Shown here one piece after another: positions 7,036-53,538 of a stretch of DNA of 64,000 nucleotides. The translations under genes were made by a program, and so were the position numbers. Below the pieces are notes generated by a model. The model was not told the origin of the DNA and did not search any database. It worked only from the letters and a program-made list of their open reading frames with translations. This stretch comes from Mucilaginibacter sp. (GTDB lineage Bacteria; Bacteroidota; Bacteroidia; Sphingobacteriales; Sphingobacteriaceae): NCBI RefSeq assembly GCF_028288105.1, contig NZ_JAQBOI010000090.1:119-64118 (forward strand), read 5' to 3'. Every line of letters begins with the position of its first letter. Within the stretch, counting starts at the first letter, position 1.

Positions 7036-7051
7036 TGAGAGAATTAAGCTT

Positions 7052-8765: not shown

Positions 8766-8766
8766 C

Positions 8767-8812: not shown

Positions 8813-8870
8813 ATCTCTAATAGTTATTGTTTATTAAAAACAACTACCTATATTTACTTTTAATGTAACG

Positions 8871-8895
8871 ATAAGACCCATTTTTTAGGTCTTAT
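8871..8895 (+). promoter_or_regulatory. Putative AbiEi autorepression operator
   Basis: Inverted repeat ATAAGACC-N9-GGTCTTAT just upstream of abiEi. Confidence 0.55.
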
Positions 8896-8913
8896 AATGA
8901 CACTCGAAGTAAT

Positions 8914-10579: not shown

Positions 10580-10817
10580 GGCCAGCGGCTGCGGCAGGTG
10601 GCTTCATTACACCACGCGCTATCGCGCCGGGTTCCATTCCGCCGCCAGCCTCGCCGCCACGCAAGCAGGAATGAAATTCGCTATCGCTCATAACATACCT
10701 GCTACGGGCCTAGCCACTTAAAATGAGTTAAGTAAAGGCAACAGCAAATTAACAATAAAGATGACTATTAAGGGGCATTGTAAACAATAGTCGAAATACA
10801 ACAATAATCAGGTGATA

Positions 10818-12213: not shown

Positions 12214-12369
12214 GCCTGTAATAAAGTGATTTAAGTTCCATGCAATGATAACTATTTTTTTAATATAACAAATGTTACCGCAGATTATTTTGTTATGATC
12301 GTCGTCAGTTAAAGCGAACAAAATCTTAAAAAGGGGAAGGGGGTAATGAAAGGTGAGAATTTAAATAAA

Positions 12370-12401
12370 TAGACAGGACAATAACTTTATCACCCTGTCT
12401 A
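12370..12401 (-). terminator. Hairpin after the YjzC-like gene
   Basis: TAGACAGG...CCTGTCTA inverted repeat. Confidence 0.5.
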
Positions 12402-34300: not shown

Positions 34301-34735
34301 AACTTCGACTTATCGGTACTACTACAGGGACAGGCCAATGTCAAACAGTATTTTGGTGGCTATTTCCCGGTAATGAGTTATTCATTAGGTAATTTTCTTG
34401 CCTGGCGAGCTGACGGACGCTGGACGCCAGAGCATACCAATGCTACGCAACCGCGTGCCAGTTATGAATTGTTTAATAATAACACACAGCGCTCAACACA
34501 ATGGTTGCTTGACGCAGGCTTCCTAAGATTTAAAAATATTGAATTTGGCTATAATCTGCCAAAGGCAATAACTGGTAAAATTGGTGTGAAAAATTTACGG
34601 GTTTCGGTTAGCGGCAGTAATTTATTCGTCATCTATGACCACATGAAGGATTTAGGATTTGACCCGGAAACCAATGATTACTGGTATTATCCCCCGCAAC
34701 GCGTAATTAATTTCGGAGTTAATGTAACCTTATAA
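31322..34735 (+). CDS. susC: SusC/RagA TonB-dependent transporter with N-terminal STN extension
   Basis: LNEVVVVGYG, VLKDASAAIYGARAANGVILVTTK. Confidence 0.95.
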   Translation: MKYKPLLLKIMRITFLQLIIVFSIMGSVYANGVKAQAILDTKISIKETNNQLRQVLQKLGKQYHIEFVYSPDIINEKLVVNVDMQRKKLSDVLRKILQPLNLSFDMVGNVIVVRNNKDPKSVPFSSTTPSSSEAQAYQPESVIPFEAQVVITGKVTDEKGEAIPGVTVRHKETGKALATNVNGEYTIVLPEAVGTLSFSFLGYQTKEVAIGSDRRINVTLVAVSGNLNEVVVVGYGTQKKATLTGSVVAIKGSEIVKSPAINVTASLAGRLPGVIINSRSGEPGRDNPSISIRGSSTTGNTSALVIIDGVERGGLGQLNPNDIESISVLKDASAAIYGARAANGVILVTTKRGTAGAAPQVNLSFNQGFTQPTRNPIMADSYTFGKVYNEIEIGEGRTPRYTNDELNKYQNNSDPNYPNTDWYKFIVKNWTPQHRTNLSVSGGNNGTTYFLSFGEVMQDGQYNGGTEKIRQYNIRSNIDVQITDNFKIGMNLSGRFDNNHFPYQGANNLNSHIFLYQPNWQPYWPGTNLPQPNRGNESILNWVNDNNGYQDVHTNTFQSTLFFNWNLPWVKGLSINGSGSYDPNSVFTKTFQTPTFVYYKDATNSEYTRGRSGMGADLADLNDRTSLGSLFYLTGRINYERKFGLHNVKLLLGYEQQTINSNYDIAYRSDFVSTVIPQIFAGSSDKNKQGNDGSATQGARKNYFGRINYDYAGKYLAEFTMRRDGSPNFAANKRWGNFPSASVGWRLSEENFMKKFNFINDLKIRASYGIMGNDLTDSFQYLTTYGFGNNYVIGGNDVTGLVQTGAPNPDITWERAKTGNIGLDATLWNGFLGITFDYFKTRRSDILTKRTAIIPGYTGLMLPAENIGIVDNKGFELVLSHTNNNHEFKYNFSGNIAFARNKVIFSDEQPAATPYQLATGRPIGSTLYYKSIGIFPDQASIDAYPHYLNARPGDIKFEDVNKDGKIDALDRIRINQTNVPEMTFGFTANLRYKNFDLSVLLQGQANVKQYFGGYFPVMSYSLGNFLAWRADGRWTPEHTNATQPRASYELFNNNTQRSTQWLLDAGFLRFKNIEFGYNLPKAITGKIGVKNLRVSVSGSNLFVIYDHMKDLGFDPETNDYWYYPPQRVINFGVNVTL

Positions 34736-34745
34736 ACTAAAGAAA

Positions 34746-36383
34746 ATGAAAAAGATATTTTATATCGTACTGATTATTTTTTCTGCCAGTTCGTGTAATA
34801 AGCTGGATTTGACACCTTTGGACAAAATATCCGAGGCCGATACCTGGACCGACCCCGCCCTGATACAATTATATGTGAACGCAACCTATAACTCTATGCA
34901 GCATGGATTTCAGCAGGATCTGTTATCCTCAGCGTGTGATGAAACTTATAGCATACATGGCTATGGTAACCTTGCCGTATTACAAAGAGGCGAACTAACA
35001 CAGGATAATGTCTCAGGACTTTCTACCAAGATCAACTATTTTAATTTCGCTTACGGATATATCCGCAACATTAACATCTTTTTTTCCAAGATCGACGCGG
35101 CTCCGGCGGAAGCGGCTTTTAAAAATAGCACTACGGGTGAAATGAAATTCATCAGGGCTTATATTTACGCGAATTTGATTTGGCGGTATGGTAGTGTCCC
35201 GTTAATCACTAAAGTGTTTGGCCTTCATGATGATTTTACGGTTTCACAATCTTCTTATGATGATTGTGTGAAATTCATCGTAACAGAACTTGATGATGCA
35301 GCAAAATTACTCCCGGCCAATCAGCCAGACAATCAGTTGGGAAGGGCTTCAAAGAACGCCTGCCTGGCATTAAAGGCGCGGGTATTGCTTTATGCCGCCA
35401 GCGCGCAAAATAATCCAAGCCACGACCAGGTAAAGTGGCAGGCCGCTGCAGACGCTGCAGGCGCGTTGCTTAATGCTGGTTACCAGTTAAATGACGATTA
35501 CCAGGCAACCTTCTTAAGTAACAACAACGAAGTTATTTTTGCACGCCAGTTTACGCAAGCCAATAACACGGGTGGTACCGGCTTTAACCTTGAACAGGGC
35601 CGCAATGGCTCTAATGGCTACGGGTCAGAAAATCCATCACAAAACCTCGTTAATGCTTATGAGATGGCGGCTACCGGAAAACAGCCCTATATTGTACAAA
35701 ATGACGGTATACTGGTCGCAAACCCCGGTTCCGGTTATGACCCGGCAAACCCTTACAGCGGCAGGGACCCAAGATTTGATGCTTCTATCCTGCACGATGG
35801 CTCCGTTTGGGCCGGCAGGGTTACAGAAACATTTCACGGTGGAGAGGATTCTCCGGAAAGCAGTTCCGGGTTTAATGCCTCGCTTACTTCTTATAATTTC
35901 AAGAAATTTTTGGTCGAAAGTATTCCGCCCTCTGGGTCCAGCGTTAGGCCCACCAATCCTTGGATCTTCTTTCGCTACGCGGAGGTGCTGCTGAATTATG
36001 CGGAAGCAAAATTTGAATTGGGTGATGAGGTTACTGCAAGGCAATATCTGAATATGGTGAGAAGCCGTCCAAGCGTGCACATGCCGGCGGTAACTGATGC
36101 TGGCGAAGCCCTCAGGAGCCGTATACAAAATGAACGCCGTGTGGAACTTGCTTTTGAAGAGCATAGGTTCTTTGACGTCCGTCGTTGGAAGATTGCAACG
36201 GTGGTATTGAACCAGCCATTTCTCCGTATGGATATCGCTAAACAACCCAATGGGACAAAAACCTATAACATTATAAAATTGAACGATAGTAAGTTTTTGG
36301 AACCACAGTATCTGATGCCTTTCCCGCGTGCGGAAGTGGACAAGAGCTTAGGCTCGCTTAAACAAAATCCGGGATACCAATAA
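34746..36383 (+). CDS. susD: SusD/RagB lipoprotein
   Basis: Lipobox SSC, RYAEVLLNYAEA, ERRVELAFE, QNPGY. Confidence 0.95.
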   Translation: MKKIFYIVLIIFSASSCNKLDLTPLDKISEADTWTDPALIQLYVNATYNSMQHGFQQDLLSSACDETYSIHGYGNLAVLQRGELTQDNVSGLSTKINYFNFAYGYIRNINIFFSKIDAAPAEAAFKNSTTGEMKFIRAYIYANLIWRYGSVPLITKVFGLHDDFTVSQSSYDDCVKFIVTELDDAAKLLPANQPDNQLGRASKNACLALKARVLLYAASAQNNPSHDQVKWQAAADAAGALLNAGYQLNDDYQATFLSNNNEVIFARQFTQANNTGGTGFNLEQGRNGSNGYGSENPSQNLVNAYEMAATGKQPYIVQNDGILVANPGSGYDPANPYSGRDPRFDASILHDGSVWAGRVTETFHGGEDSPESSSGFNASLTSYNFKKFLVESIPPSGSSVRPTNPWIFFRYAEVLLNYAEAKFELGDEVTARQYLNMVRSRPSVHMPAVTDAGEALRSRIQNERRVELAFEEHRFFDVRRWKIATVVLNQPFLRMDIAKQPNGTKTYNIIKLNDSKFLEPQYLMPFPRAEVDKSLGSLKQNPGYQ

Positions 36384-36398
36384 ATTTATCCATGTGGC

Positions 36399-36427
36399 AT
36401 AAGGCAGCTGCTCAGCAGCTGCCTTAT
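36399..36427. terminator. Intergenic stem-loop after susD
   Basis: ATAAGGCAGCTGC-TCA-GCAGCTGCCTTAT. Confidence 0.6.
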
Positions 36428-36460
36428 CTTATCTTTATTTCAATTCCTTAGCCATTTAAA

Positions 36461-38602
36461 ATGATCATTGTTTTTTCAAGTTTGAAGATGTGCATAAAAA
36501 AGTCTGTTTTATTATTATTTATTTTTAGCTATTTAGCTGCCGGGGCGCAACAGGTCAGCCGGGGAACGATCGATCGCCGGGCATTAGTAAGCCGTCATAA
36601 TCTAAAAATCACTGATGCCAAATCCCCCGGGCCAACACAGGTGGGAAACGGCAATTTTGCTTATGGGTTCGATATTACCGGGATGCAAACTTTTAACGAC
36701 CAGTTTACAACCATGTCTCAATGGAGCTGGCATAGTACGCCACCCCCAAAAGGTATGCAACCTGGCGACTTTAAACAGACCTTGGTGGCAACCCATGGCC
36801 GGATGGTTGGCTATGACCTGCCTGATCACAATCAGGCTGAATTAACTCAATGGCTCTCCAGCAACCCACACCGGTTTAACCTCGGAAGGATCGGGCTGAT
36901 ATTAAAAAAAAAGGATGGTACTACGGCACAGCAGGATGACCTGCAAGACCCGGTTCAATATGTAAACCTATGGACTGGTATCTCCGAAAGTAATTTTACT
37001 GTGGAAGGGCAAAAAGTAAAAGTTACCACCATTTGTGATCCGGACAAGGATATTTTAAGTTTCAAAATCGAATCCGATCTCATTCTTCAAGCCCGGCTGG
37101 GTATTTTTTTAAAATTCCCTTATGCAAGTTTAAAATATTTCAGTAACGGTTCGGACTATCAAAAGCCCCTGTTACATCAAACACGCCTTACGTTAAAACA
37201 CGGCAATTTGGCGTTATTTAACCGCCACCTGGATCAAACCAATTACCAGGTAGCTTGTAAATGGTCGGGAAACGGAAGTGTAAAGAAAGAAGCCGAACAC
37301 AGTTATGTTTTTTATCCGGATTTCAAAAATAAGAGCATAGAATATGTCTTTGCTTTTTCCCCTTCTAAAATTGGCTATAACTTACCCTCATTTGCTGAAG
37401 TTAAAGCCAAAAGTGTTAACCACTGGGCTGCATTTTGGAAAAGTGGGGCGGCAATAGACCTGTCCCAAAGTAAAGACCCACGCTGGTTTGAACTGGAACG
37501 GCGGATTATACTTTCGCAATATGTGATGGCCATCAATGCGGCAGGAAACTTTCCACCGCAGGAAACAGGCCTGGTCAATAACAGTTGGTACGGGCGCTTT
37601 CATTATGAAATGTACTGGTGGCATGCGGCTCACTATGCGTTGTGGGGTCGCTGGCCGCTATTGAATAAAAGCCTTCATGTCTATTCAGACAACCTGGCAT
37701 CGTCCATAAAGCGGGCAAAATTGCAAGGGTATGCCGGTGCCAGATGGCCAAAATGCACCGGTCCGGATGGCAGGGAATGGCCGGATAAAACCCATGCATG
37801 GTTGATATGGCAACAGCCACATCCAATCTTTTTTGCCGAACTTGATTATCGTACACAACCTACTTTGCAAACCCTAAAAAAATGGAATAAGATCGTTGAA
37901 AAAACGGCAGATTTTTTAGCTTCTTATGCCTTTTTGGATACGGCCCGCAAACAATATATTTTAGGCCCACCTATAAAAACAGTCCCGGAGAACAATGAGC
38001 CGCTAACAACACAGAACCCGGCCTTTGAGCTGGCTTACTGGCGGTACGGCTTGCAAACCGCACAGCAATGGAGAAAGAACCTGAAACTGCCGCCAAAGCC
38101 GGAATGGGAAAAAGCACTTAAAAATTTAGCACCGATAGCTGTAAAAGACAGTCTTTATGAGCAATGGGAAGGTATCGGCAACATGTGGACAAAATTCAAT
38201 TTTGAACACCCGGCCATGGCGGGGATATTTGGAGTGCTGCCCGGTAATGGTGTAGACAAACACATTATGGAAAATACCTACCAAAAGATCCAGGCTGTGT
38301 GGAAATATGATACGGGCTGGGGGTGGGATTTTCCGATGGTAGCCATGTCTGCTGCCAGGCTTGGGCATCCGGATCAAGCTGTTGACATGCTTTTACATCC
38401 TTCAAAAAAATTCGGATTTGATGAGCATGGCTTTGTGGGCGGGGGTAATCCATACCCTTACATCCCCTCAAACGGTGGCTTGTTATATGCAATAGCATTT
38501 ATGACTGCAGGCTGGGATGGTGATAAAAATATTCATGAACCCGGGTGGCCGAAAGATGGCTCCTGGGTGGTTAAATGGGAGGGATTTAAAAAAGCTCCCT
38601 GA
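36461..38602 (+). CDS. Secreted (alpha/alpha)6-barrel glycoside hydrolase-like protein
   Basis: Signal peptide, VGNGNFA, PPQETGL, GARWPK, WGWDFP; PUL context. Confidence 0.7.
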   Translation: MIIVFSSLKMCIKKSVLLLFIFSYLAAGAQQVSRGTIDRRALVSRHNLKITDAKSPGPTQVGNGNFAYGFDITGMQTFNDQFTTMSQWSWHSTPPPKGMQPGDFKQTLVATHGRMVGYDLPDHNQAELTQWLSSNPHRFNLGRIGLILKKKDGTTAQQDDLQDPVQYVNLWTGISESNFTVEGQKVKVTTICDPDKDILSFKIESDLILQARLGIFLKFPYASLKYFSNGSDYQKPLLHQTRLTLKHGNLALFNRHLDQTNYQVACKWSGNGSVKKEAEHSYVFYPDFKNKSIEYVFAFSPSKIGYNLPSFAEVKAKSVNHWAAFWKSGAAIDLSQSKDPRWFELERRIILSQYVMAINAAGNFPPQETGLVNNSWYGRFHYEMYWWHAAHYALWGRWPLLNKSLHVYSDNLASSIKRAKLQGYAGARWPKCTGPDGREWPDKTHAWLIWQQPHPIFFAELDYRTQPTLQTLKKWNKIVEKTADFLASYAFLDTARKQYILGPPIKTVPENNEPLTTQNPAFELAYWRYGLQTAQQWRKNLKLPPKPEWEKALKNLAPIAVKDSLYEQWEGIGNMWTKFNFEHPAMAGIFGVLPGNGVDKHIMENTYQKIQAVWKYDTGWGWDFPMVAMSAARLGHPDQAVDMLLHPSKKFGFDEHGFVGGGNPYPYIPSNGGLLYAIAFMTAGWDGDKNIHEPGWPKDGSWVVKWEGFKKAP

Positions 38603-38647
38603 TTAATATATATAGTGATTCCCGATTTTTTTAATATTACATTTTAT

Positions 38648-40792
38648 ATGAAAAAACATACGATTAGCGCGCTTGCCCTGTTCCTGATTTTGCAGGCTAC
38701 CCTTATCAATACTTTTGCACAGGTTACCAACCTTGCAGCCGGCATACAAAAATTATCTGCAGGCCATCCCGATAAATTTACGCCATACGCCTTTTGCGAG
38801 GAATTACCGATGAAGACAGTACTTGCCGGTCTGCCTGCCGGAAAATTACCTTTCAAACTGGCTGATATCAAAATAAGTACAAACGACCGGGGAGTAGTAG
38901 TAGAGATCCCGTTGGATAATAGCGAGCAACTTTATGGCTTCGGGCTGCAACTGGGTTCTTTTAACCAGAAGGGTTTAAAAATAAAACCGATTGTTAACGA
39001 TAACCCGTTAAACGATGTTGGTTATACCCACGGCCCTGCCACATTTTATGTATCTAACAAAGGCTACGGGATCTTAATAAATACAGCGCGCTATACCACC
39101 TTTTACTGTGGGACCACGGCTAAACTAAATGACCGTAACGGTGCACCTGTAGAAACAAAAGGAGGCAATTCAGTTGATGAGCTTTACAAAAGCGATGGCA
39201 AAGCGCAAGGCAATGTAACGGTGGATATCCCCGGCGCCAAAGGAATAGAAGTTTTTGTTTTTGAGGGCCCTGATCTTAAAAACGTTATGCAGCGGTATAA
39301 TTTATTTTCAGGGGGTGGTGCTTTACCCGCAATTTGGGGTTTGGGGATCAAGTACCGTGTGAAAGCAGATTTCAATCAGCAGCAGGTTATTAAAATGGGA
39401 AAATACTTCCGCGACAACCATATCCCGTGTGATGTATTGGGTATCGAACCTAAATGGCAAACCGCAGCCTATTCCTGCTCATATGTTTGGGCAAAGGACT
39501 TTTTTCCCGATCCCCCAAAGTTTATTGCCACCATGAAGGAGCAGGGGTTTCAGGTAAATTTATGGGAACATGCTTTTGTATCACCTAAATCTCCACTTTA
39601 TGAACCTTTGAAAACCAAGTCGGGTAATTACCTGGTATGGGGCGGATTAGTACCCGATTTCGCCGATAGCGCAGCAAGAGGGATTTTTGCCGATTATCAT
39701 GATGAGACTTTTGTAAAACAGGGGATCTCGGGCTTTAAAATGGATGAGTGTGATAACTCCAATATCGCTTTTGGAAGCAACTCGTGGAGTTTCCCCGAAC
39801 TTAGCCAGTTCCCGTCGGGCATTGACGGTGAGCAGATGCACCAGCTTTTCGGCTTGCTGTATCAAAAAACCATATATAACATTTATAAGCGCTCAAACAA
39901 GCGCACGTACCTTGATGTGAGGGCCTCCAATGCTTTCGCATCGGCTTATCCCGCCGCTTTGTATAGCGATACATATGATCATGACCAATATATTAAAATG
40001 ATACTTAATTCTGGTTTTTCGGGCATGATATGGTCCCCGGAAGTAAGGGAATCTAATTCGATAAAAGATTTTATGCGTCGCAGTCAAACGGCGGTGCTGT
40101 CGGCACAAACACTATTTAATTCCTGGTACTTGCAAAACCCGCCATGGTTACAGATCAATATTAAAAAGAACAATAATGGTCAATTAATGGACAATGCAAA
40201 GCAAATTGAGGCCGATATCCGGAAACTATTCGAATTTAGAATGAGCCTCATCCCATATTTGTATAATGCATTTGCTGATTATCATTTTAAAGGGATACCT
40301 CCGTTTCGTGCATTGGTTATGGATTATCCTGAGGATAAGAACACTTTTAACCTCGCGGATGAATACCTGATAGGTGAGGGTATCCTGGCCGCACCGTTAA
40401 CGGAAAAAATGGATGAAAGAAAGGTTTATTTACCGGCAGGTATCTGGTACGACTTTAATACCAACCAAAAATATGAGGGTGGCAAATCTTATATAGTAAA
40501 AACAGGCCTTACCGAACTGCCGATATTTATCAAAGAAGGAACGATACTTCCTTTGGCGAAGCCGGTCACTAATGTAACAGGAAACACGGTATTTGAAATT
40601 ACCTGCTACGTATACGGCGAGAAAAGCACTACAGCGACCTTGTTTGAAGACGATGGCGTAACTTTTAATTATGAAAAAGAAAAGTTTAATCGGATAACCT
40701 TGTTATGGAATAAAAATAAAGGCATGTTTAAACGGAACGGCACATTTAAAAACAAAAGATATGATATAAAAGAATGGCGGCTTATCAAATAA
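38648..40792 (+). CDS. GH31 glycoside hydrolase
   Basis: Signal peptide, GFKMDECD nucleophile region, RMSLIPYLY, YLPAGIWYDF, LFEDDG. Confidence 0.88.
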   Translation: MKKHTISALALFLILQATLINTFAQVTNLAAGIQKLSAGHPDKFTPYAFCEELPMKTVLAGLPAGKLPFKLADIKISTNDRGVVVEIPLDNSEQLYGFGLQLGSFNQKGLKIKPIVNDNPLNDVGYTHGPATFYVSNKGYGILINTARYTTFYCGTTAKLNDRNGAPVETKGGNSVDELYKSDGKAQGNVTVDIPGAKGIEVFVFEGPDLKNVMQRYNLFSGGGALPAIWGLGIKYRVKADFNQQQVIKMGKYFRDNHIPCDVLGIEPKWQTAAYSCSYVWAKDFFPDPPKFIATMKEQGFQVNLWEHAFVSPKSPLYEPLKTKSGNYLVWGGLVPDFADSAARGIFADYHDETFVKQGISGFKMDECDNSNIAFGSNSWSFPELSQFPSGIDGEQMHQLFGLLYQKTIYNIYKRSNKRTYLDVRASNAFASAYPAALYSDTYDHDQYIKMILNSGFSGMIWSPEVRESNSIKDFMRRSQTAVLSAQTLFNSWYLQNPPWLQINIKKNNNGQLMDNAKQIEADIRKLFEFRMSLIPYLYNAFADYHFKGIPPFRALVMDYPEDKNTFNLADEYLIGEGILAAPLTEKMDERKVYLPAGIWYDFNTNQKYEGGKSYIVKTGLTELPIFIKEGTILPLAKPVTNVTGNTVFEITCYVYGEKSTTATLFEDDGVTFNYEKEKFNRITLLWNKNKGMFKRNGTFKNKRYDIKEWRLIK

Positions 40793-41426: not shown

Positions 41427-41993
41427 CTATACCGGCAGGTATTTATTGACTATTTTTCCATTTTTGTAAGCGGTTGAACTATCTAATTTCAGTGCTTTTT
41501 GCTCCTTAAAAATTGAAAGCCCGCTCCCGATAGCAACTGGGTTCCTGAAAATAAAATATTCATCAATAAGGTTCTGGCTGATCAGCGAACTTACAAAATT
41601 GGCGCCGCCATAAACAATAATATCTTTGCCCGGTTCTTTTTTCAGCGCCTGTACTGCAGCAGCCAGGTCGCCGTTTTCCACTTCCAGGTTCCTGCCGTTG
41701 ATGGCGGTTTGTGTGTGGCTGAAAGCAATTTTGCGCATATTTACCATTAGTTGCGCCAAAGGTTGTTCCGGGCTGTCGGGCAGGTTGTCCACCACATTTT
41801 CCCAGTGATCGGTGAATCCCCGGGTCATCTTGCGACCCAGCAAAATGGTATCGCAGCTGTCGGCCAGCTCAATTACACGCTGGAATATAGATTCATCCCG
41901 TTCGCCGGGTATCCACATCCAGTCCAACTGGCCATCCGGCCCGGCTACAAAACCATCAAGGGTCATTTGTACCTGTAATTTTAATTTTCGCAT
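41427..41993 (-). CDS. Dihydrofolate reductase / RibD C-terminal family protein
   Basis: MTLDGFVAG, LLGRK, YGGANF, LIDEY, GSG. Confidence 0.88.
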   Translation of the reverse strand: MRKLKLQVQMTLDGFVAGPDGQLDWMWIPGERDESIFQRVIELADSCDTILLGRKMTRGFTDHWENVVDNLPDSPEQPLAQLMVNMRKIAFSHTQTAINGRNLEVENGDLAAAVQALKKEPGKDIIVYGGANFVSSLISQNLIDEYFIFRNPVAIGSGLSIFKEQKALKLDSSTAYKNGKIVNKYLPV

Positions 41994-42188
41994 AGCAATT
42001 GTTTTTAAAAAGTGATTGTGTTTCTTTCTATCAAATATCTGCAAATAGTCCATGATATTACGGGTATGATCACGACAAAACAGGGGGGTGATTTGCGCAA
42101 AAAATAAGTGAGAAGGATAGTATATATGTAAGCCTTAGATTGAAGATCTTGTTCAAGATATAGCGTAAGACAAATAAGAGATGGCTTT

Positions 42189-42956
42189 TTATAAAGGTAT
42201 ACCGAATAGCTGCGCGTGTAACAGAATGATACCCGGATAAGCCATCGGGAAGGTAACGATGAAATCGTTAAGCCCCATTAATATGGAAGTTGCCAAATGG
42301 AACGAAAGCATCAATGCCAGGGTAACGATGAGCAATGATTGAAATGGCAGGCAAAAACTTACAATTACGGCAAGCATCATCACCATAGCGCTATATGAAC
42401 ATGCTTTTTCTATTACCGGGTGTTTTGCCAAAAAACCGGAAACCTTAGGTATGCCGTACGAGTAAGTGCCTAATATGCCGGCTAATACATTGCCTTTTCG
42501 CCAATATGGCGATGTGAGTTTCATGATACCCGAGGTAGTATACCCCAATATTACCTGCAGGCCCATAAAATAAATGGATAGTAATTCGCCGGTATTGCTG
42601 CTCAGTAAAAAACACAGGCTGTATGATAAGTAGCCAATGAGGCGCACCTGGTCTGATCCGTCTTTGCCGCCGGTGCGTATTTGATACGAATACAGGTTAA
42701 CCGCGGCAATAAGTACAAAAGGTATCCTGAAATATACGGTATCGTACCCGATGATCAACACAAAGGCCATCACACACAAAACAACCTGGATAGCCTGAAC
42801 TGCGGCCCATCTTAAATACTTGCTTTTTACTTCGGTTGTAGGATATACAAAATTTACATATTTCTTCGGCACGCTTAAAAGCTCCGCCCCTGAGACAAAG
42901 CCCGATAACAGTAAAATAGAAACGCTGATCTTGTAATACAGGTGCAGGTTATGCAT
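42189..42956 (-). CDS. HTTM / SdpB-like multi-pass membrane protein
   Basis: DGSDQ, YTTSGIMKL..YWRKG, FHLATSILMGLNDF..AYP. Confidence 0.75.
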   Translation of the reverse strand: MHNLHLYYKISVSILLLSGFVSGAELLSVPKKYVNFVYPTTEVKSKYLRWAAVQAIQVVLCVMAFVLIIGYDTVYFRIPFVLIAAVNLYSYQIRTGGKDGSDQVRLIGYLSYSLCFLLSSNTGELLSIYFMGLQVILGYTTSGIMKLTSPYWRKGNVLAGILGTYSYGIPKVSGFLAKHPVIEKACSYSAMVMMLAVIVSFCLPFQSLLIVTLALMLSFHLATSILMGLNDFIVTFPMAYPGIILLHAQLFGIPL

Positions 42957-42958
42957 GG

Positions 42959-43450
42959 TTATAATTTTTGATATGCCGAGGCAAAAATGACATCGGTTAT
43001 TTGTATGGTTTCTACTCCTTCGGCAGCTACAATTGCAAACCTGATGGTTGCTTCTTTATCCTTAATATGGTCAACTATCAGCATCAGTATATTCAGGTAA
43101 TTTTCAGAGATTAGGATAAAATCTTTATTATCCTCGGCCAGGTTATTAAATTCGGCGATCAAAAAGTTAAAACAATCGATCATACCCTTGTTATAATATT
43201 TAAAAGGGTTCCAGAAAATCCTCTGTAATGAAAAATATTTATAAAGGGGCACTTCCAACCACTCTTCGCTCCCAATTATTTTATAAACAAGGCGATAATC
43301 ATTCACCATTGGTCTTGGCGCAAAGAAAGAATAGTTAGGCAACAGATGCAGTATATCAAACTTTGCAAACTTGCCCTGCAGGCTTTTTACCTGGTAAAAA
43401 ACACTTGCTATAAAAAATATAGCAAGTGTTGTAATAACAAACCAGACCAT
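42959..43450 (-). CDS. SdpA / DUF5819-like membrane-anchored protein
   Basis: N-terminal TM, LLPNYSFFAPRP, FWNP. Confidence 0.7.
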   Translation of the reverse strand: MVWFVITTLAIFFIASVFYQVKSLQGKFAKFDILHLLPNYSFFAPRPMVNDYRLVYKIIGSEEWLEVPLYKYFSLQRIFWNPFKYYNKGMIDCFNFLIAEFNNLAEDNKDFILISENYLNILMLIVDHIKDKEATIRFAIVAAEGVETIQITDVIFASAYQKL

Positions 43451-43454
43451 TACT

Positions 43455-43934
43455 TTAATTTAAAGCTTCTTTTCTGATCATAAGGAGCTGTTGAAGTGTT
43501 AAGGCCTCAACGCTGTTATTTTTTAGTCTTGAAGCGATGTTTTTTGTCATTTGAGCAGTTTTTGGCGGGTTTGCCAGTGCAGCTCCATCAGCCCCATCAG
43601 TAACAGCAGCGGTAATCGCACTTAGCACTGCCGATTTATTCGCAGTAACAAAATGTGCAACCCGAGTAGCCGCAGTTTTAGCATCATGGGCAACGTACGT
43701 AGCCGCAGTTTTAACATCGTGGGCGACATTCGTGATAATATTCGTAGCCGCAGTTTTAACATCATGGGCGACATTCGTGGCAATATTTTTAGCAGCAGTT
43801 TCAACATCATGTACCGCGGTCATAATAAAACTGATAAATCCGCCGATCACGGGTTTGTCAACAAGCATACTTTCGATCAGCTGGTCAACATCGGCCAAGG
43901 CCGATACATTTAAATTGGCTTCTTTTAACTTCAT
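43455..43934 (-). CDS. Putative peptide precursor with tandem repeats
   Basis: First gene of the operon; GG at residues 31-32; four HD[VA][KE]TAA repeats; no Cys. Confidence 0.7.
   Translation of the reverse strand: MKLKEANLNVSALADVDQLIESMLVDKPVIGGFISFIMTAVHDVETAAKNIATNVAHDVKTAATNIITNVAHDVKTAATYVAHDAKTAATRVAHFVTANKSAVLSAITAAVTDGADGAALANPPKTAQMTKNIASRLKNNSVEALTLQQLLMIRKEALN
43655..43815 (-). repeat. In-frame tandem repeat (33/45/45-nt spacing)
   Basis: GTAGCCGCAGTTTTA at 43666, 43699 and 43744, with a variant at 43789. Confidence 0.9.
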
Positions 43935-44206
43935 AATAATTTGTTGGTTTAGGTTAATGACTACTCTGTTAGATGCTTTTCGTCGTCCGCATTTATTAAT
44001 TGTGATATTTTTTATTCAGAGTTGAAAATCTTTCTTTGATATATAAGTATATATTTATAATCATTTAAAAAACTTACAAACAATGTTTTATGAATATATA
44101 AACATACGGGATTGATATGAATTATAGAAAATAATTATATTAAAATATCACAAAGAAATTTTTCTTTAATAAATTTACCACCACCACTACAGCCACTAAT
44201 ATTAAT

Positions 44207-44746
44207 ATGGTAACCATCATACTTTTAAATGGGACATCCAGCGCCGGGAAATCGAGCATTGCATATAAAATACAAGAGTTTGGTGAGCTGCCTTATCTGC
44301 ATGTAAAGATGGATACTTTTTTAAGGATGGCTCCTTATGATCACATTCGTCGCCGGGAAACATCAAATTTGATCATTAAGGGCTTTCATAACAGCCTTGC
44401 CGGATTGTCTATAGCCGGAAATTGCCTGGTGATAGATCACGTTTTCCAAGAGCAGGAATGGTTTCTTAATTGCCTTAAGGCTCTCAAAGATCTGAGGGTT
44501 TATTTTATTGGGGTGCATTGCGACCTGGAAACGCTTAAGCAAAGAGAGATCAACAGAGGCGACCGCTCTATTGGCACCGCCGAATATCAATATGAGCGTG
44601 TACACGCAAAAACCACGTATGACTTTGAGGTAGACACGGCAAACGCCACTGCCGAAACGTGTGCGCAGGCAATATTGAAATATGTTACCGAAACAGCACA
44701 TCCGCTTGCCTGGGAAAAATTGCTTGCCGAAAACAATATAGAATAA
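44207..44746 (+). CDS. Chloramphenicol phosphotransferase (CPT)-like P-loop kinase
   Basis: LNGTSSAGKS, VIDHV, REINRGDR, YDFEVDT. Confidence 0.85.
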   Translation: MVTIILLNGTSSAGKSSIAYKIQEFGELPYLHVKMDTFLRMAPYDHIRRRETSNLIIKGFHNSLAGLSIAGNCLVIDHVFQEQEWFLNCLKALKDLRVYFIGVHCDLETLKQREINRGDRSIGTAEYQYERVHAKTTYDFEVDTANATAETCAQAILKYVTETAHPLAWEKLLAENNIE

Positions 44747-44777: not shown

Positions 44778-45490
44778 TCAGTCAATTTTTGGAGCGTTGC
44801 TGTTGTAATCTTTGTCTGTTACTTTTCCTAACCATACAACGCTTCTCTTATCCATATTCGGGCTTAGAGCGATATGTGTCATGAATCTGCCTGGCGAGGC
44901 TCCATGCCAGTGGATCACATTTGGCGAACATTTAACAATGTCGCCTTTGTGCAGCAGCTGAATTTGTTTGCCTTTTTCCTGGTAATAACCCAGCCCGCCA
45001 GTTATCAGAAGTATTTGCCCCGAAGGATGTAAGTGCCAATTTGACCGGGCTCCCGGCGCAAAGGTTACATAGCCAATTTGGGTGTTATAGGCCTTATCTG
45101 TTGGAACGAGCATATTTAGCCATACATCACCTGAAAAATTGTTGCTGGCAATTTTATCGCCTTTGTTAAATATTCCTTGCTGAATACTTACTACAGGTTC
45201 CGAATGGATAGATGTAGTTGCTGTTTGGCCGAACATTTCATCTAAAATTTTAGCCGCACTATAGCCTTCCTCCCTGCCTATTTTTGTGTATAAGGCAGAT
45301 GCAACCGCCCTTAACTGTTGTTCTGTAAGACCGACATTTTTGCCAACATTGAGGTGGCCACGGAGCTGACTTTCTACCCCTCCCAGGCTGGCTAATGCAG
45401 AAATTGTTGAAATCTCGCGGCTTTGGTAATCAAGGTTATCCCGGCTGAATATATCGGCAAAAAGATGTTCTTTCAGGAATGTATATATAC
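44778..45490 (-). pseudogene. 5'-truncated carboxymuconolactone decarboxylase-cupin fusion
   Basis: Frame upstream of Met 45236 reads TFLKEHLFADIFSRDNLDYQSREISTISALA (CMD-like); cupin WHLHPSGQ...HWHGA. Confidence 0.7.
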
Positions 45491-45888
45491 AACCACTGTT
45501 GGCCAGGTCGTTAAAGTTTCACGAAAAGCAAACGGGAAAATCAAAATTGATAAAGTTTGGGCGGTTGTGGATTGTGGCTGGTACGTAAACCCGGATATTA
45601 TACATGCCCAGGTAGAAGGATCTGTTCTGATGGCGCTTGGTGCGGCAACCATTCATCAGATTACTTTTAAAGACGGATTGGTAGAGCAACGAAACTTTCT
45701 ACGACTATTTAATGCCAAGAATTACCGATATGCCTCCGGTAGAGGTGCATGTTATGGAGAATGATGCAAACGCTGGCGGTGTTGGTGAGCCGGGACTTCC
45801 GCCGTTTGCACCCGCGCTAACTGAAGCGATATTTGATCTGACGGGTAAACGAATACGAAAGCTTCCATTCGACCTTAATAAGTTATAA
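45491..45888 (+). pseudogene. C-terminal fragment of a molybdopterin oxidoreductase (isoquinoline 1-oxidoreductase beta-like), frameshifted
   Basis: VVDCG..VNPD..AQVEGS, then after a shift near 45698 GGVGEPGLPP..TGKRIRKLP-stop. Confidence 0.8.
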
Positions 45889-48476: not shown

Positions 48477-51400
48477 ATGAAAAAACAAATACTATTGATT
48501 TGCTTCATGCTCTTTGTTGCAAAAAGTTTCGCCCAAAATATCACCATTGGCGGTGTGGTTTTGGATGCGGAAACCAAGGTGCCTGTTTCATCGGCTAATA
48601 TCGGTGTAAAAGGTACAAGCCAGGGTACTACAACAAACATGGAAGGTAAATATTCCCTTGCCAATGTAAAGCCAAACGCCGTTTTGGTTTTTTCTTTTGT
48701 GGGATATAAGCCGGAGGAAATTACACTTAATGGGCAAACACAATTAAATGTAACCCTAACCCCCGACTATGGTAATCTTAACGAGGTGGTAGTTGTGGGT
48801 TTTGGTGCTAAGAAAAAAATAAACATTGCAGGCGCTATCGATCAAATTTCGGGGAAACAGCTCGAATCCCGCCCGGTATCAAACGTATTGCAGGGCTTGC
48901 AGGGCGCCAGCCCGGGCCTGAATATTACCTATCCCGGTGGTGCACCAGGTACGGTTCCTGTAATTAACATCAGAGGCTTTACATCTATTAACGGAGGGTC
49001 GCCATTAATTGTAATTGATGGTATCCCCGGAACTAACGATGATATGTTGCGGTTAACCCCTTCAGATATTTCATCTTTCACGGTATTGCGTGATGCGGCA
49101 TCGGCTGCTATTTACGGGGCAAGGGCTGCTTTTGGGGTTATCCTTATCACAACTAAGCAAGGTTCTATAGGGCATCAAACCATCAGCTACAATGCGCTTG
49201 CCTCATGGGGTAAAACTACCATATTACCGCAGCCAATAACCGATCCCTTTATCTATTCAAAAGTGCTCGAAACCTCTACAAATAATACCCCGTGGGATTA
49301 TGTAAATTATAGTGATGAATGGTACAAATGGGCTAAAGAAAGATCAGATGATCCGTCTATCGCTGATACACGGTTAGATCCGGCCGATCCAACCAAATGG
49401 GCGTACATGGGTAACAACAACTGGTATAAATATTTTTTTAATGATGCCAGCTTATCACAAAACCAAACACTAACGCTTTCGGGCGGGGCTACAGTAAATA
49501 ATACACCTTTAACCTATTATCTATCTGCAAATTATACCAAAGAAAACGGCCTCAATAAACTTTCAGATGATTTCTGGAACCGTTATGGCCTGAGGTCGAG
49601 GATTGGGTTTTCGCCTTTAAAATGGCTTAAAGTAGATAATAACCTTAATATCTACGAAACTAAACGCGCGCAGCCAACCACTAATATCACAGATATTTAT
49701 TACCTGCAACCAACAGATGTAGCTAAAAACCCGGATGGCACCTGGGCCAATACGGCAGCCGGCAGGCTTGCAGCGAGGTTGGTTGATGGCGGGAGTAACC
49801 TCCAAACCATGTTTGGGTTTCAAAATATTACCAGCGCCACCGCCTCATTTTTAAATGGAGATTTAACTGTAAATGGCGATGCTTCATTAAAAAGAGAATT
49901 GTGGAAGTATCATGCTGATGCCAATACATATAATATTGGATTTGGGCCGGATGATATACGGCAGGAAGGTGGTACAGGATCTGTAACCGAAAATAATGGC
50001 TACCTGTATAACAATGCGTTCAATTTATATACCACCTATAAGAAAACCCTTGGCGACCACTTTTTTAGCGCCATGGTTGGTTATAACTCTGAAGATTACA
50101 GCTATTCAACCATCAATGCATCAAAAGATGGGCTTATCTCACCTTCCCTACCTTATTTGGGGTTAACCAATGGTACGCCTTCGGTGGGCGCAAGTTATTC
50201 GGCGTATGCTACTACCAGCGTGTTTAGCCGGTTAAATTATACTTATAAAGGCAGGTATATATTAGAGGGCACCGGCAGGTATGATGGTTCTTCCCGCTTC
50301 CCCACAGAAAGGCGCTGGGGCTTTTTCCCGTCTGCATCTGCAGCCTGGATAGCAAGTGCCGAAGACTTTTTTAAACCACTGGCCCCTGTGGTATCTACAT
50401 TTAAATTACGCGCATCATATGGCGACCTTGGGAACCAGGAAGTTCAAAACTTTGGCTATATACAATCATTGGTGCCGGGTGCTTCGAACTATTTAATAGG
50501 CGGCAATAGCCAAAGTCCGATCATTAATGGTGCCCCGGGGTTATTTGTTGATCCAAATACTTATACCTGGGAGAGGGCATCTACCTTTAATATGGGTACA
50601 GATATTGGCCTTTTTAACGATAAATTTCTGGTAGGGTTTGATTATTATATCCGCAATACCAGGGGGATGCTTACAGCAGGGCAGGAATTGCCTGGCGTGC
50701 TTGGAACTATTGCTCCGGCACAAAATGCGGCAGATCTAAGAACCAAAGGCTGGGAATTATCTGTAACGTACCAGGACAGGTTCACTTTAGCATCTAAGCC
50801 TTTTAATTTCACATCAAAGATATTCCTTTCTAACTCCGATTCGGAGATCACCAAATTCCAGAACGATCAGGGGCTTTTTTCAAGCAATTATCGCGTAGGC
50901 CAAAAAATTGGAGAGATATGGGGATTGCAAAATGATGGTTTATTCCAGAACCAGGCCGAAATAGATAAGCTTGATGAATCGGCTATTATACCATGGGGCG
51001 CTTTAAGCATTGTTAATGGATGGCCAAAATACAAAGATCTGGATGGCAATGGTAAAATTGAAGCAGGGTTAAGTTCAAAGGATCCAAAAGACTTAAAAGT
51101 TATTGGTAATAGTGCCGATCATTATAGTATCGGGACTAATATAAATATGGATTGGAATGGAATTGATCTTTCGATATTCTTGCAAGGGGTATTAAAAAGA
51201 GATTTTTACCCACATAATTATTTGTTCTGGGGGCCGTATCAGCAACCTTACGCTAATATATACCCGTGGAACCTTAATTACTACCGTGCCACCTCTGATT
51301 CGCCAGAGCAAAGGGCTCAGTATTCCAAATCTTATATCGCAGCAGGCTTGGCCGATGCAAATCCTAACTCCTATTACCCTGTATTGCAGTCATGGCTGGC

Positions 51401-51683
51401 CGATGCCAATTATGGTTCGGGATTAGATATTCCTCAAACAAAGTACCTTTTAAATGGCGCTTATTTAAGAATTAAGAACGTTTCGGTAGGTTATACATTC
51501 CCTTCTAAAATGAGCAAGCGTTTCGGCATAAGCCGCCTGCGGATCTTTGCAACCGGCGATAACCTTTATGAATTCTCGGCTATAAAGAAATATATAGACC
51601 CCGAAGCCGTAAATGCAGGTGCAAGCGCCATGGCGTATCCATATCAGCGTAAATATGCACTTGGCATAAACTTAGATTTTTAA
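48477..51683 (+). CDS. susC: SusC/RagA TonB-dependent transporter
   Basis: LNEVVVVGFG, DAASAAIYGARAAFGVILITTK, C-terminal Phe. Confidence 0.95.
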   Translation: MKKQILLICFMLFVAKSFAQNITIGGVVLDAETKVPVSSANIGVKGTSQGTTTNMEGKYSLANVKPNAVLVFSFVGYKPEEITLNGQTQLNVTLTPDYGNLNEVVVVGFGAKKKINIAGAIDQISGKQLESRPVSNVLQGLQGASPGLNITYPGGAPGTVPVINIRGFTSINGGSPLIVIDGIPGTNDDMLRLTPSDISSFTVLRDAASAAIYGARAAFGVILITTKQGSIGHQTISYNALASWGKTTILPQPITDPFIYSKVLETSTNNTPWDYVNYSDEWYKWAKERSDDPSIADTRLDPADPTKWAYMGNNNWYKYFFNDASLSQNQTLTLSGGATVNNTPLTYYLSANYTKENGLNKLSDDFWNRYGLRSRIGFSPLKWLKVDNNLNIYETKRAQPTTNITDIYYLQPTDVAKNPDGTWANTAAGRLAARLVDGGSNLQTMFGFQNITSATASFLNGDLTVNGDASLKRELWKYHADANTYNIGFGPDDIRQEGGTGSVTENNGYLYNNAFNLYTTYKKTLGDHFFSAMVGYNSEDYSYSTINASKDGLISPSLPYLGLTNGTPSVGASYSAYATTSVFSRLNYTYKGRYILEGTGRYDGSSRFPTERRWGFFPSASAAWIASAEDFFKPLAPVVSTFKLRASYGDLGNQEVQNFGYIQSLVPGASNYLIGGNSQSPIINGAPGLFVDPNTYTWERASTFNMGTDIGLFNDKFLVGFDYYIRNTRGMLTAGQELPGVLGTIAPAQNAADLRTKGWELSVTYQDRFTLASKPFNFTSKIFLSNSDSEITKFQNDQGLFSSNYRVGQKIGEIWGLQNDGLFQNQAEIDKLDESAIIPWGALSIVNGWPKYKDLDGNGKIEAGLSSKDPKDLKVIGNSADHYSIGTNINMDWNGIDLSIFLQGVLKRDFYPHNYLFWGPYQQPYANIYPWNLNYYRATSDSPEQRAQYSKSYIAAGLADANPNSYYPVLQSWLADANYGSGLDIPQTKYLLNGAYLRIKNVSVGYTFPSKMSKRFGISRLRIFATGDNLYEFSAIKKYIDPEAVNAGASAMAYPYQRKYALGINLDF

Positions 51684-51719
51684 TTATTAAGCGATTTAAC
51701 AATCATTAAAAAATTAGTT

Positions 51720-53516
51720 ATGAAGAAATATACTATATATATCCTATTTATTGCGGTTGCATTTACTGCCTGCAAAAAAGACGCCCTCGACCGTTTCCCG
51801 CAAACGGCTATCTCGCCAAATCTTTTCTTTAATACAGAAAGTGACCTATCGTTATACGTTAATGGTTTGCTTTCACTGCCCGACAGGAATACCTACCTGA
51901 ACGATCAAAGCAGTGATAACGTTGCAACTACCGCTAACGTAGAAGTGAAAAATGTGATGGCAGGCAGTGCCAACTCACAAAATATTACCTCAGGCTGGGA
52001 TGCGGCCAGTTGGAGCAAATTACGTGACATCAATTACTTTTTAGAAAATTATAATAAAGCCAAAGTAACGGCCGAGATAAAAAATCATTATGTAGGGCTG
52101 GCTAAATATTACCGGGCAGTATTTTACCTTGATAAAGTTAAACGCTTTTCGGATGTACCCTGGTTTTCGGGCACTTTAAACCCTGGTGATAAAGATCTAT
52201 ATAAGGGCCGCGACCCAAGGGCGCTGGTTATAGATAGCGTGATGGCCGATCTGGATTTTGCTTATCAGCATGTACGGGAAGATGTCCCTACGGGTACACC
52301 TGGAAAATGGGCGGTGGCTGTATTTTATAGCCGTGCCGCGCTTTACGAGGGCACTTATCGTAAGTATCATTCAGAACTAAATTTAGCAGGTACTGCAAAT
52401 AGTTTTCTTGAAACCGCTGTTAAAATAGCCGGCGACATAATGGGTTCAGGGAAATTTACTATTTATAACACCGGAAAACCCGATCAGGATTATGCTGCTT
52501 TGTTTAACAGCCAGGACCTTACCGGGAATGAGGAAGTTGTTTTGGCTAATATTTTTGATTTGAGTAAGAATAGAAGCCAGAATGTGAATTCGGTAGTTTT
52601 TGGCGATTACGAACAGGCTCCGGCTAAAGATCTGATGCAAAGCTACCTGATGAAAGACGGCAGCCGTTTTACAGATCAGCCAAACTATACTAAACTTGGC
52701 TTTGTAAAAGAATTTGAAAACCGCGACCCACGGCTTGCTCAAACAGTAGCCTACCCGGGATGGGTTAGAAGTCCTGATAAACAACCTTACATCCAAAGTT
52801 TAAACAAAAATTTTACAGGCTATCACCAACTAAAAGGATACGTGAACAGCACTGAGGAAGCTACTTTAAATGGTGTTGATTTCCCGGTATACCGATATGC
52901 GGAAGTGCTGTTGAACTACGCCGAAGCATTGGCCGAACTGGGTACACTAACGCAACAACAACTTGATGCATCGGTGAACCTGATCAGAAAAAGGGCTGGC
53001 ATGCCTGATCTTAATATAGCGCAGGCAAATGCATCCCCGGATGTATTGTTGCAGCAACAATTTGGCAATATCGGTTCAAACGCCGGTGTGATCATTGAGA
53101 TAAGAAGAGAGCGCAGGGTTGAATTTGCATTTGAAAACACCAGGTATGATGACCTGATGAGATGGAAAGCCGGGAAATTATTAACCAAAAGCCCGGAAGG
53201 AATGTATTTCGCAGGTTTAGGGAAATATGATCTGACCGGTGATGGGGTAGAAGACATTATTTTGATCGACGGATCCTTAAGCATCCCGGCCGAAGATAAA
53301 AAGGAAAAGAACTCGTTAGGGGTAAAGTTGGTTTACTACCGCACAGGTACAATTGGTTCTGATGCTACCGTGTATTTGAAAAATGTTAATACCGGTAGTA
53401 ACATGGTAACCGAATCGGCAGTGCGCGATTTTCAGGAGCCTAAATATTATTACCGCCCTATACCACAACAGCAGGTAATATTAAACCCAAATCTTAAACA
53501 AATATTCGGCTGGTAA
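51720..53516 (+). CDS. susD: SusD/RagB lipoprotein
   Basis: Lipobox FTAC, RYAEVLLNYAEA, ERRVEFAFE. Confidence 0.95.
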   Translation: MKKYTIYILFIAVAFTACKKDALDRFPQTAISPNLFFNTESDLSLYVNGLLSLPDRNTYLNDQSSDNVATTANVEVKNVMAGSANSQNITSGWDAASWSKLRDINYFLENYNKAKVTAEIKNHYVGLAKYYRAVFYLDKVKRFSDVPWFSGTLNPGDKDLYKGRDPRALVIDSVMADLDFAYQHVREDVPTGTPGKWAVAVFYSRAALYEGTYRKYHSELNLAGTANSFLETAVKIAGDIMGSGKFTIYNTGKPDQDYAALFNSQDLTGNEEVVLANIFDLSKNRSQNVNSVVFGDYEQAPAKDLMQSYLMKDGSRFTDQPNYTKLGFVKEFENRDPRLAQTVAYPGWVRSPDKQPYIQSLNKNFTGYHQLKGYVNSTEEATLNGVDFPVYRYAEVLLNYAEALAELGTLTQQQLDASVNLIRKRAGMPDLNIAQANASPDVLLQQQFGNIGSNAGVIIEIRRERRVEFAFENTRYDDLMRWKAGKLLTKSPEGMYFAGLGKYDLTGDGVEDIILIDGSLSIPAEDKKEKNSLGVKLVYYRTGTIGSDATVYLKNVNTGSNMVTESAVRDFQEPKYYYRPIPQQQVILNPNLKQIFGW

Positions 53517-53538
53517 AAGGCACTACGCTTTATATTTT

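Follow-up and report, generated by a model that had tools for sequence, protein, structure and literature searches.

A predicted leader-core-follower precursor and a LinL/LinG-like membrane protein pair form a compact cassette in Mucilaginibacter

A three-gene cassette

We studied a three-gene operon on the minus strand of a 64,000-nucleotide stretch of Mucilaginibacter sp. DNA (contig NZ_JAQBOI010000090.1, positions 119 to 64,118; hereafter the window), from a genome assembly that is 88.5% complete. The results support a cassette composed of a precursor (gene 1) and a two-part membrane protein system (genes 2 and 3, products A and B), and gene 1 very probably stands to A and B as a precursor to its enzymes. 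By sequence comparison, the nearest characterised relatives of genes 2 and 3 are the linaridin genes LinL and LinG; our best reading of these comparisons is that the cassette would work like a LinG/LinL pair but fails linaridin membership, with no LinE, PxxxTP, LinT or LinM. By the features tested, the cassette belongs to none of these three: the linaridin, the Sdp and the carboxylase families. An earlier sequence-only reading of the operon had proposed a new class of ribosomally made peptide with post-translational modifications (RiPP) or bacteriocin; the way the precursor is built and the small number of genes are indeed new, but the proposal was overstated at the enzyme level, where the proteins are LinL and LinG homologues. 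No description of the cassette or of the precursor family was found among the top-ranked results of the literature searched, the key linaridin papers and the supplements of Georgiou 2020 being outside its reach. The tight minus-strand layout given in that reading is present in the sequence: the three open reading frames (ORFs) are intact, with gaps of 4 bp (gene 1/gene 2) and 2 bp (gene 2/gene 3). A Pfam and NCBIfam scan of the three genes gave no meaningful family match and no SdpA, SdpB or HTTM model at E<=1.

Table 1 Features of the operon and of the predicted precursor, in window coordinates
Feature	Position	Strand	Description
Gene 1	43455..43934	-	159-aa predicted precursor, leader-core-follower, no Cys, no signal peptide
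Gene 2 (A)	42959..43450	-	163-aa LinL homologue: one N-terminal transmembrane helix and an alpha/beta domain
Gene 3 (B)	42189..42956	-	255-aa stand-alone LinG homologue, HTTM/GGCX membrane fold
Predicted leader, residues 1-32	43839..43934	-	motif L-x3-[EQA]-L-x2-[ILV][DE]-x2-I-x2-M; ends IGG before F33
Predicted core, about residues 33-125	43560..43838	-	13 Thr, 6 Asp, 1 Glu; boundaries set in this analysis
Five [AV][AV]H[DF] repeats	43650..43817	-	spacing 15/15/11/11 residues
Follower motif LTLQQLLMIR, residues 145-154	43473..43502	-	family pattern L[ST]L-x2-L-x2-[IL]R
AT-rich intergenic region	43935..44206	.	22% GC, between precursor and divergent CPT-like gene; presumed promoter

The precursor and its family

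The tandem repeats and the C-terminal LTLQQLLMIR segment that had been pointed out in the gene 1 product are both present; the repeats begin at residues 40, 55, 70, 81 and 92, and Tandem Repeats Finder described the gene as a 45-bp unit in 2.5 copies (89% matches, score 179). The protein has no Cys and, by a crude check (an acidic N-terminus with no uncharged run of 10 residues), no signal peptide, in agreement with the contrast to SdpC drawn earlier. Its core is amphipathic with a helical period of 97 degrees, and the hydrophobic moment of residues 33-98 was reached by 0 of 1000 shuffles; the Atlas model of the precursor had a predicted local distance difference test score (pLDDT) of 0.46. 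Cleavage would be expected after IGG, before F33. Export of the double-glycine type, through a peptidase-containing ATP-binding cassette (ABC) transporter, was ruled out for this end, since GG is not conserved in the family and no peptidase-ABC transporter lies nearby.

A homologue search with the window precursor returned only itself and one 94% variant, and the Atlas gave no usable match. The precursor variant P0028 was missing one 4-residue block in the repeat region and a 3-residue block further on. A leader hidden Markov model (HMM) built without the window protein ranked gene 1 first among 28,307 genome ORFs (E 0.017), but the follower HMM, run genome-wide, did not place it among its top matches. 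No other ORF of the genome came out of these scans as a convincing further precursor.

Related loci came from several sources. Among 300 genomes of the family, 12 had a match; 400 genomes of the phylum gave 10 matches, and of 228 other genomes of the genus 21 had an A homologue. A further 13 loci were contributed by a species-level genome scan and 9 by metagenomes. Removed before counting were L013, whose match (E 7.8e-4) looked by eye like a membrane ORF of respiratory-complex type, L032, L033 and L035 (contig ends upstream) and the duplicates L029, L030, L041, L057-L061, L067 and L068; L008, L010 and L043 were counted once as L053, L052 and L054, and L055 is the same as L003. Also kept out of the precursor counts were the plasmid loci and L044-L051, which are of Sdp type or belong to other HTTM proteins. 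The test proposed with the sequence-only reading was whether related pairs have a comparable upstream ORF, and they do: a precursor-like ORF, called by eye, with conserved leader and follower and a variable core adjoined A and B in 39 of 47 loci. In the close clade of the window it was present at all 19 loci with enough flank, which belong to several Bacteroidota families and lie in unrelated neighbourhoods.

The alignment of the family showed a conserved leader helix and a conserved C-terminal follower (pattern in Table 1) around a hypervariable core. Regular expressions written post hoc matched the leader in 30 of 33 precursors against 1 of 28,307 background ORFs, and the follower in 30 of 33 against 5 of 3,989. 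A held-out leader HMM found the adjacent ORF at E<0.05 in 9 of 16 later-fetched loci, and five of these nine were closely related to sequences it had been trained on; in the same 16 the follower HMM contributed one more precursor, that of L070. Precursors were 75-258 aa long, with cores of 31-153 aa. The mean composition of 31 cores was 29% Ala, 13% Val, 9% Thr, 9% Ser, 4% Asp and 4% Glu, and two of them (L022, L028) had neither Asp nor Glu. Helical amphipathicity was seen in the first 26 residues of 30 of the 31 cores, which are related sequences and so not independent. Cores across the family differed widely and had no common target side chain; even within the genus they were wholly divergent, being short and aromatic in L072 and L073 and devoid of Thr in L070 (by eye). 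The residues preceding the core also varied (GG, LA, YG, KS), and in some precursors (L010, L071) the leader was of roughly 190 aa. The L024 core contains a VAHDV stretch resembling that of the window, whose repeats are a single lineage's expansion of the variable core. Two precursors were found at L014, L015, L017, L024, L027 and probably L070; L014 and L027 had several divergent copies with near-identical ends.

Some loci departed from this layout. At L052 (3639-4415) and L071 (693-1466) the precursor was a 257-258-aa variant with a long, possibly folded leader and the same follower, whose short hydrophobic core begins with a linaridin-like xxTP-A-x-[IV]; such a variant might connect the precursors of linaridins with those that have a follower. 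L070 had precursors on both sides of A and B (1-653 and 2066-2461), the downstream ORF apparently consisting of tandem leader-core-follower units and running past the region fetched. A second compact clade (L002-L007, L009, L062-L066, L069) combined a precursor of about 100 aa, A, B and a DCC1-like gene, often preceded by a response regulator and with a lipase-class-3-like gene after the cassette. At one metagenomic locus (L034, 833-2260) Thoeris ThsB/ThsA-macro anti-phage genes lay directly upstream of the cassette. A divergent A and B-like pair, in which GAETEN replaces DGSDQ, occurred at L012 (797-3538) and L078 in a cluster with sulfotransferase and oxygenase-like ORFs, where no precursor was seen.

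The membrane protein pair and its relatives

Product A has a single N-terminal transmembrane helix, basic residues after the helix and then an alpha/beta domain. The motifs FFAPxP and WNP, described earlier for this product, are present as FFAPRP and WNP, and P-x-x-x-FFAP-x-P is invariant in the A family. Fold searches with A gave a best Z of 3.8 and no detectable fold match, GGCX included, and no longer fused forms of A were found among 7,994 candidates, which is weak evidence.

A protein search with B returned 25 other homologues, 24 at 42-58% identity, of which the named ones are from Bacteroidota, and, at 34%, a distant fragment of an HTTM protein. A genome scan with the single B sequence gave no matches, but the B alignment as query did give loci, and the B profile collected 1,313 clusters at E<=1e-30. 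No match was obtained in a PDB sequence search with the close alignment. The Atlas placed the model of B with HTTM clusters (TM-score 0.86-0.89) and with Actinomycetota HTTM-hydrolase fusions (0.80-0.84). For an AlphaFold2 model of B (pLDDT 91.7) the top 14 Foldseek rows were all GGCX (TM-score 0.51-0.61, E 0.007-0.19, none below E 0.001), and in a VIA-wide fold search generic helical bundles came first, GGCX standing at rank 20 (Z 9.0, root-mean-square deviation 3.6, 155 aligned). A 20-sequence B profile reached GGCX at E 0.002 with K218 aligned. The relationship to HTTM proteins and vitamin K-dependent carboxylases proposed for B is thus borne out by the Atlas clusters, the Foldseek rows and the profile, and its motifs DGSDQ, SGIMK, WRKG and FH...MGLN are all in the sequence.

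In the profile alignment K146, W152, H220 and F232 of B corresponded to K218, W223, H287 and F299 of GGCX, whereas GGCX H160 fell on G100 and D263 on M194; this numbering was derived from an offset of 26 on the printed alignment, in which identity is low and a one-residue slip at H160 gives Asp or Ser, still not His. K146, Y139, W152, H220 and F232 were invariant in 144 of 144 B representatives, and position 100 was Gly in 142 of them. The conserved motifs of B lie on loops with 3-6 Lys/Arg, and three alternate loops have none. Since the conserved residues E25, R94, D99-Q103, K146, W152, H220 and MGLN are on Lys/Arg-rich loops, and A is basic after its transmembrane helix, the active site would face the cytoplasm by the positive-inside rule.

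Both proteins are homologous to the linaridin pair, B to LinG (the transmembrane HTTM domain of LinH/CypH, LegG, CrdG) and A to LinL (CypL, GrmL), sharing the motifs G.DG[SA]DQ, Y..[SA]G..K, WR.G, FH...MGL..F and P.[WY].FFAP.P. In a 1,700-ORF database the close-A-family HMM matched plasmid LinL proteins at E 3.6e-21 to 1.4e-11; the A protein of the window was in turn matched by an HMM of LinL at E 2.4e-11. When the Mucilaginibacter genome was searched by tblastn, the LinL query (E 9.7e-11) and the LinG query (E 3.6e-16) matched this locus only. With phmmer, B scored 7.5e-20 to 4e-17 against LinG/LinH proteins and 3.5e-4 to 0.85 against the SdpB type; the SdpA/SdpB label first given to the pair was therefore dropped, the SdpABC-type loci of Bacteroidota forming a separate clade.

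The linaridin proteins used here came from plasmids, where tblastn of B gave 19 records, 13 of them from Streptomyces. Four of the five plasmid regions opened had a linaridin layout, with small PxxxTP ORFs (the motif occurred in 9 of 11 small ORFs), LinH (an HTTM-hydrolase) or LinG and LinE, LinL, a methyltransferase and an ABC transporter. The Lin names are our own assignment from the layout in the accessible text of Georgiou 2020 (10.1101/2020.07.09.196543), and are supported by one plasmid-locus precursor that weakly matched NF033752 linaridin_CypA (E 5.7e-4). The fifth region, L039 of the haloarchaeon Haloplanus (3795-12378), had an A and B pair after an ATP-grasp gene, beside a YcaO/SagB/TOMM (thiazole/oxazole-modified microcin) cluster, and the Streptomyces californicus plasmid locus L038 (1-8341) carried a pair of divergent linaridin-type sets, one of them with a fused LinH and the other with LinG and LinE.

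The cassette resembles linaridin systems also in its Ala/Val/Thr-rich hydrophobic cores and its several precursors per locus. Unlike them, it comes without a LinE hydrolase, LinM, LinT or PxxxTP; its precursors carry a follower and are 75-258 aa long, while those of the linaridin loci have none (0 of 11 fit the follower pattern) and measure about 58-70 aa, and the window core, of about 93 aa, compares with 14-80 aa in linaridins (10.1101/2020.07.09.196543, accessible text). A looser x[ATCV]P[VAEMSY] motif was found inside many related cores and is absent from that of the window. The DCC1-like partner at half of the cassette loci and the Glu-to-Met change in B of the window clade relative to LinG are further differences, and the host belongs to Bacteroidota, whereas the 561 clusters of the 2020 survey are, in its accessible text, all but two actinobacterial, with neither exception from Bacteroidota (10.1101/2020.07.09.196543).

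Proposed mechanism

CypH and CypL are reported to perform epimerisation and dehydration of cypemycin together, in work by Xue in 2023. Deletion of cypL, cypH, legG or legE abolishes linaridins, according to the accessible text of 10.1101/2020.07.09.196543, and type-A linaridins hold many D-residues, with grmL a candidate epimerase in what could be consulted of PMC10373908. By analogy, we rate as somewhat probable a minimal RiPP module in which A and B would epimerise core residues and dehydrate some Thr on the cytoplasmic face, yielding an amphipathic membrane-binding peptide. That the chemistry would be at C-alpha positions of the core seems fairly probable; an antimicrobial role for the predicted peptide is tentative.

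The precursor, having no signal peptide, would stay in the cytoplasm, where the active site of B and the soluble domain of A are also predicted to lie by the positive-inside rule. Leader and follower would serve as recognition handles, as their conservation suggests, and the variable core would be threaded through the site. A and B are predicted to act as one enzyme taking C-alpha protons from the core, which would produce D-residues, or dehydrobutyrine (Dhb) at Thr; backbone chemistry of this kind would explain cores without a common side chain. K146, the equivalent of GGCX K218, might supply or generate the base, perhaps helped by menaquinone and by a reductant of the DCC1-like kind, and this is the weakest step. 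Finally, the core may be released and exported by proteins encoded outside the cluster, or may remain uncleaved, as no dedicated gene was found.

For the quinone, the host probably makes menaquinone, judging by its futalosine gene MqnC, which scored above the cut-off (MenB and MenD scored below). The DCC1-like CxxC oxidoreductase was the only recurrent neighbour, its motif being seen at 20 of 39 precursor loci (Pfam-confirmed in some); it is absent from the window cassette, and in the Mucilaginibacter genome its gene lies away from the operon, joined to a membrane domain. A Pfam scan covering 63 of the 95 neighbour ORFs of up to 700 aa that were listed at 12 loci showed no recurring peptidase, exporter, methyltransferase or immunity gene; at the other loci the neighbourhood comprised about 1.5 kb of flank only. 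Unrelated hydrolases lay near L007, L009, L010, L022 and L062-L066, and no hydrolase was conserved in the 12 related loci.

Several observations weigh against this proposal. A and B had no adjacent precursor at 8 of 47 loci, and the identity of leader and follower (35-36%) was only modestly above that of the core (24%). Position 194 of B, which is Glu in LinG and in 133 of 144 representatives, is Met in the window clade and in 7 representatives. PxxxTP was found in 0 of 33 follower-type precursors; two LinE queries gave nothing at 1e-3 by tblastn in the 88.5% complete genome, the best match to the LinH hydrolase part (6.9e-4) was on another contig, and so were the best LinT and LinM matches listed. 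With LinE, PxxxTP, LinM and LinT missing, the proposal has no dedicated means of releasing the core; LinT and LinM occur in 96% and 70% of linaridin clusters, by the accessible text of 10.1101/2020.07.09.196543. Scattered D-residues or many Dhb would destroy the strong helical periodicity of 30 of 31 cores, so that only near-complete inversion, which would give a mirror-image amphipathic helix, or little modification fits. In the tree, the split between 24 Lin-side rows and the Sdp and other HTTM rows stood at 94/96, just under the support bar, with the Lin side a polytomy, and the best tree joined the window clade with SdpB-type rows against LinG at 27/25, a grouping neither shown nor rejected. 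The statement that B is closer to LinG rests therefore on similarity and shared motifs and not on sister status.

Alternative explanations

The pair might, as an SdpAB-like system, excise and release the core as an unmodified all-L antimicrobial helix, which we regard as unlikely. In Bacillus subtilis SdpABC/YitPOM (TIGR04034, TIGR04033, TIGR04032) a small transmembrane-anchored protein and an HTTM-fold protein likewise accompany a precursor; as in SdpC, the hydrophobic core of the window precursor is internal, with a C-terminal extension behind it, and B is distantly homologous to SdpB. Both SdpA and SdpB are needed for processing SdpC into its internal 42-aa toxin, in the accessible text of PMC6818787, and with no conserved peptidase or exporter in the scanned neighbourhoods the pair might itself process the core. 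An unmodified core would also keep its helical period, B proteins of other clades matched TIGR04033 weakly (7e-6 to 3e-3), and the tree does not reject an SdpB grouping. Against this, TIGR04033 gave 0 matches in the Mucilaginibacter genome while the B. subtilis control scored, gene 2 had no match to SdpA or to any other family of Pfam or NCBIfam at E<=1, and gene 1 had no family match, no SdpC leader domain, no Cys and, by the crude check, no signal peptide. The cassettes of the phylum that we take by eye, from their motifs, to be SdpABC-type (SdpA/SdpB, with or without SdpC, at L044, L045 and L049) formed their own clade at 100/100, and SdpB-type scores for B were 3.5e-4 or worse. In linaridins, moreover, a hydrolase domain separate from the pair accompanies LinG and LinL (10.1101/2020.07.09.196543, accessible text).

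Gene 1 could instead encode an uncleaved, membrane- or stress-associated amphipathic helical protein that A and B bind, anchor or lightly modify. Repeats of 11 residues are reminiscent of the helices of late embryogenesis abundant proteins, perilipins and apolipoproteins, and the spacings of 11 and 15 and the 4-residue indel all preserve the helical register. Core lengths from 31 up to 153 aa, the variable residues before the cores, which leave no conserved cut site, and the missing peptidase, exporter and immunity gene would suit such a protein. The divergent copies with near-identical ends at L014 and L027 and the wholly different cores within one genus are instead typical of RiPP precursors, and as the Atlas offered no usable match for the protein, we find this explanation improbable.

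Menaquinone-dependent carboxylation of core Asp/Glu (+44 Da), as by GGCX or MloH, would draw on the likenesses between B and these enzymes, namely the HTTM membrane fold, the equivalents of K218, W223, H287 and F299, and the association with a DCC1-like gene; individual fold matches were weak (Foldseek E>=0.007). MqnC in the host, the DCC1-like gene at 20 of 39 precursor loci and an Asp in each window repeat agree with it. In the accessible text of a 2026 preprint (10.64898/2026.08.19.745780), DUF5819 and HTTM proteins are modelled as the two parts of a split GGCX, and MloH is cited as a carboxylase of Asp. For the substrate-binding C-terminal region (the clamp of GGCX, or DUF5819), which A would have to supply, weak DUF5819 matches came only from plasmid-locus LinL proteins (E 1.8e-4, 9.5e-3). 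K218 and H160 are the catalytic residues of GGCX and mutation of H160 abolishes carboxylation, according to the portion available of 10.1101/2025.02.18.638829, but in B the H160 position is G100, Gly in nearly all representatives. B further differs from GGCX in the Met at the D263 position, in having no Glu-rich substrate and in a predicted cytoplasmic active site, and the nearest characterised relatives are linaridin enzymes and not carboxylases. With cores averaging 4% Glu and 4% Asp, and none of either in L022 and L028, the +44 Da shift put forward in the sequence-only reading is quite improbable.

That gene 1 is an unrelated neighbour, or the whole cassette a relic, A and B having another substrate, would accommodate the 8 loci where no precursor lies near (in some cases in the surroundings of a sulfotransferase or in others) and the Met for a conserved Glu in the window clade, but is very improbable given the precursor at 19 of 19 close-clade loci of several families and unrelated neighbourhoods, and three intact ORFs with 2-4 bp gaps.

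Returning to epimerisation and dehydration by A and B, a bolder version, which we consider doubtful, would be a minimal family of membrane epimerases, programmed by leader and follower, which would invert the majority of residues in amphipathic helices of 30-150 aa through menaquinone-driven base amplification, taken over from the scaffold of the vitamin K carboxylases, with a DCC1-like recycler, the Bacteroidota loci being a small sample of more than 1,300 LinG-like clusters, most of them outside described linaridin clusters. The 1,313 B-profile clusters compare with 382 non-redundant linaridin clusters in the accessible text of the 2020 survey (10.1101/2020.07.09.196543). In this bolder version the products would be ribosomally encoded mirror-image helices. 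The main proposal would extend linaridin-type chemistry to Bacteroidota, and a tolerant multi-site epimerase or dehydratase for cores of 30-150 residues would be a useful tool for D-peptides. The action of LinG/LinL-type and SdpA/B-type pairs on peptides is poorly understood, and here the cassette consists of two small genes and a substrate; its dozens of natural cores between fixed ends offer a test bed for the part of a GGCX-like Lys and a quinone in C-alpha deprotonation.

Locus and surroundings

The AT-rich region upstream of the precursor, which had been read as a promoter region, stands out against the 41-42% GC of window and genome, but no promoter was identified in it: sigma70-like sites were no commoner than chance (9 found, 9.7 expected) and the motif TAnnTTTG was not found upstream of the operon. 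The GC content of the operon is close to the 42% of the genome (A 35%, B and precursor 43%). Logan contig X1, possibly from the source sample, spans 41988-44300 with zero differences from the window; the window DNA is also present in soil metagenome runs, and other DNA runs cover the operon in pieces only.

The neighbouring genes at the locus were assigned by Pfam to RibD_C, a chloramphenicol-phosphotransferase (CPT)-like gene and a cupin. The CPT-like gene (PF07931, 44207-44746, plus strand) is divergent from the precursor, and the same holds for the Flavobacterium locus L016 (3373-3924), a pairing which suggests that the cassette moved together with the CPT-like gene; no such gene was found beside the precursor in the remaining loci scanned. 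Two consecutive short ORFs at 45423-45888 (plus strand) resemble, by eye, parts of one oxidoreductase subunit and are possibly a frameshifted gene. The region is flanked at 31322-40792 and 48477-54477 by SusC/SusD-like pairs with glycoside-hydrolase-like and phosphoesterase-like genes (by eye), which are ordinary Bacteroidota utilisation loci.

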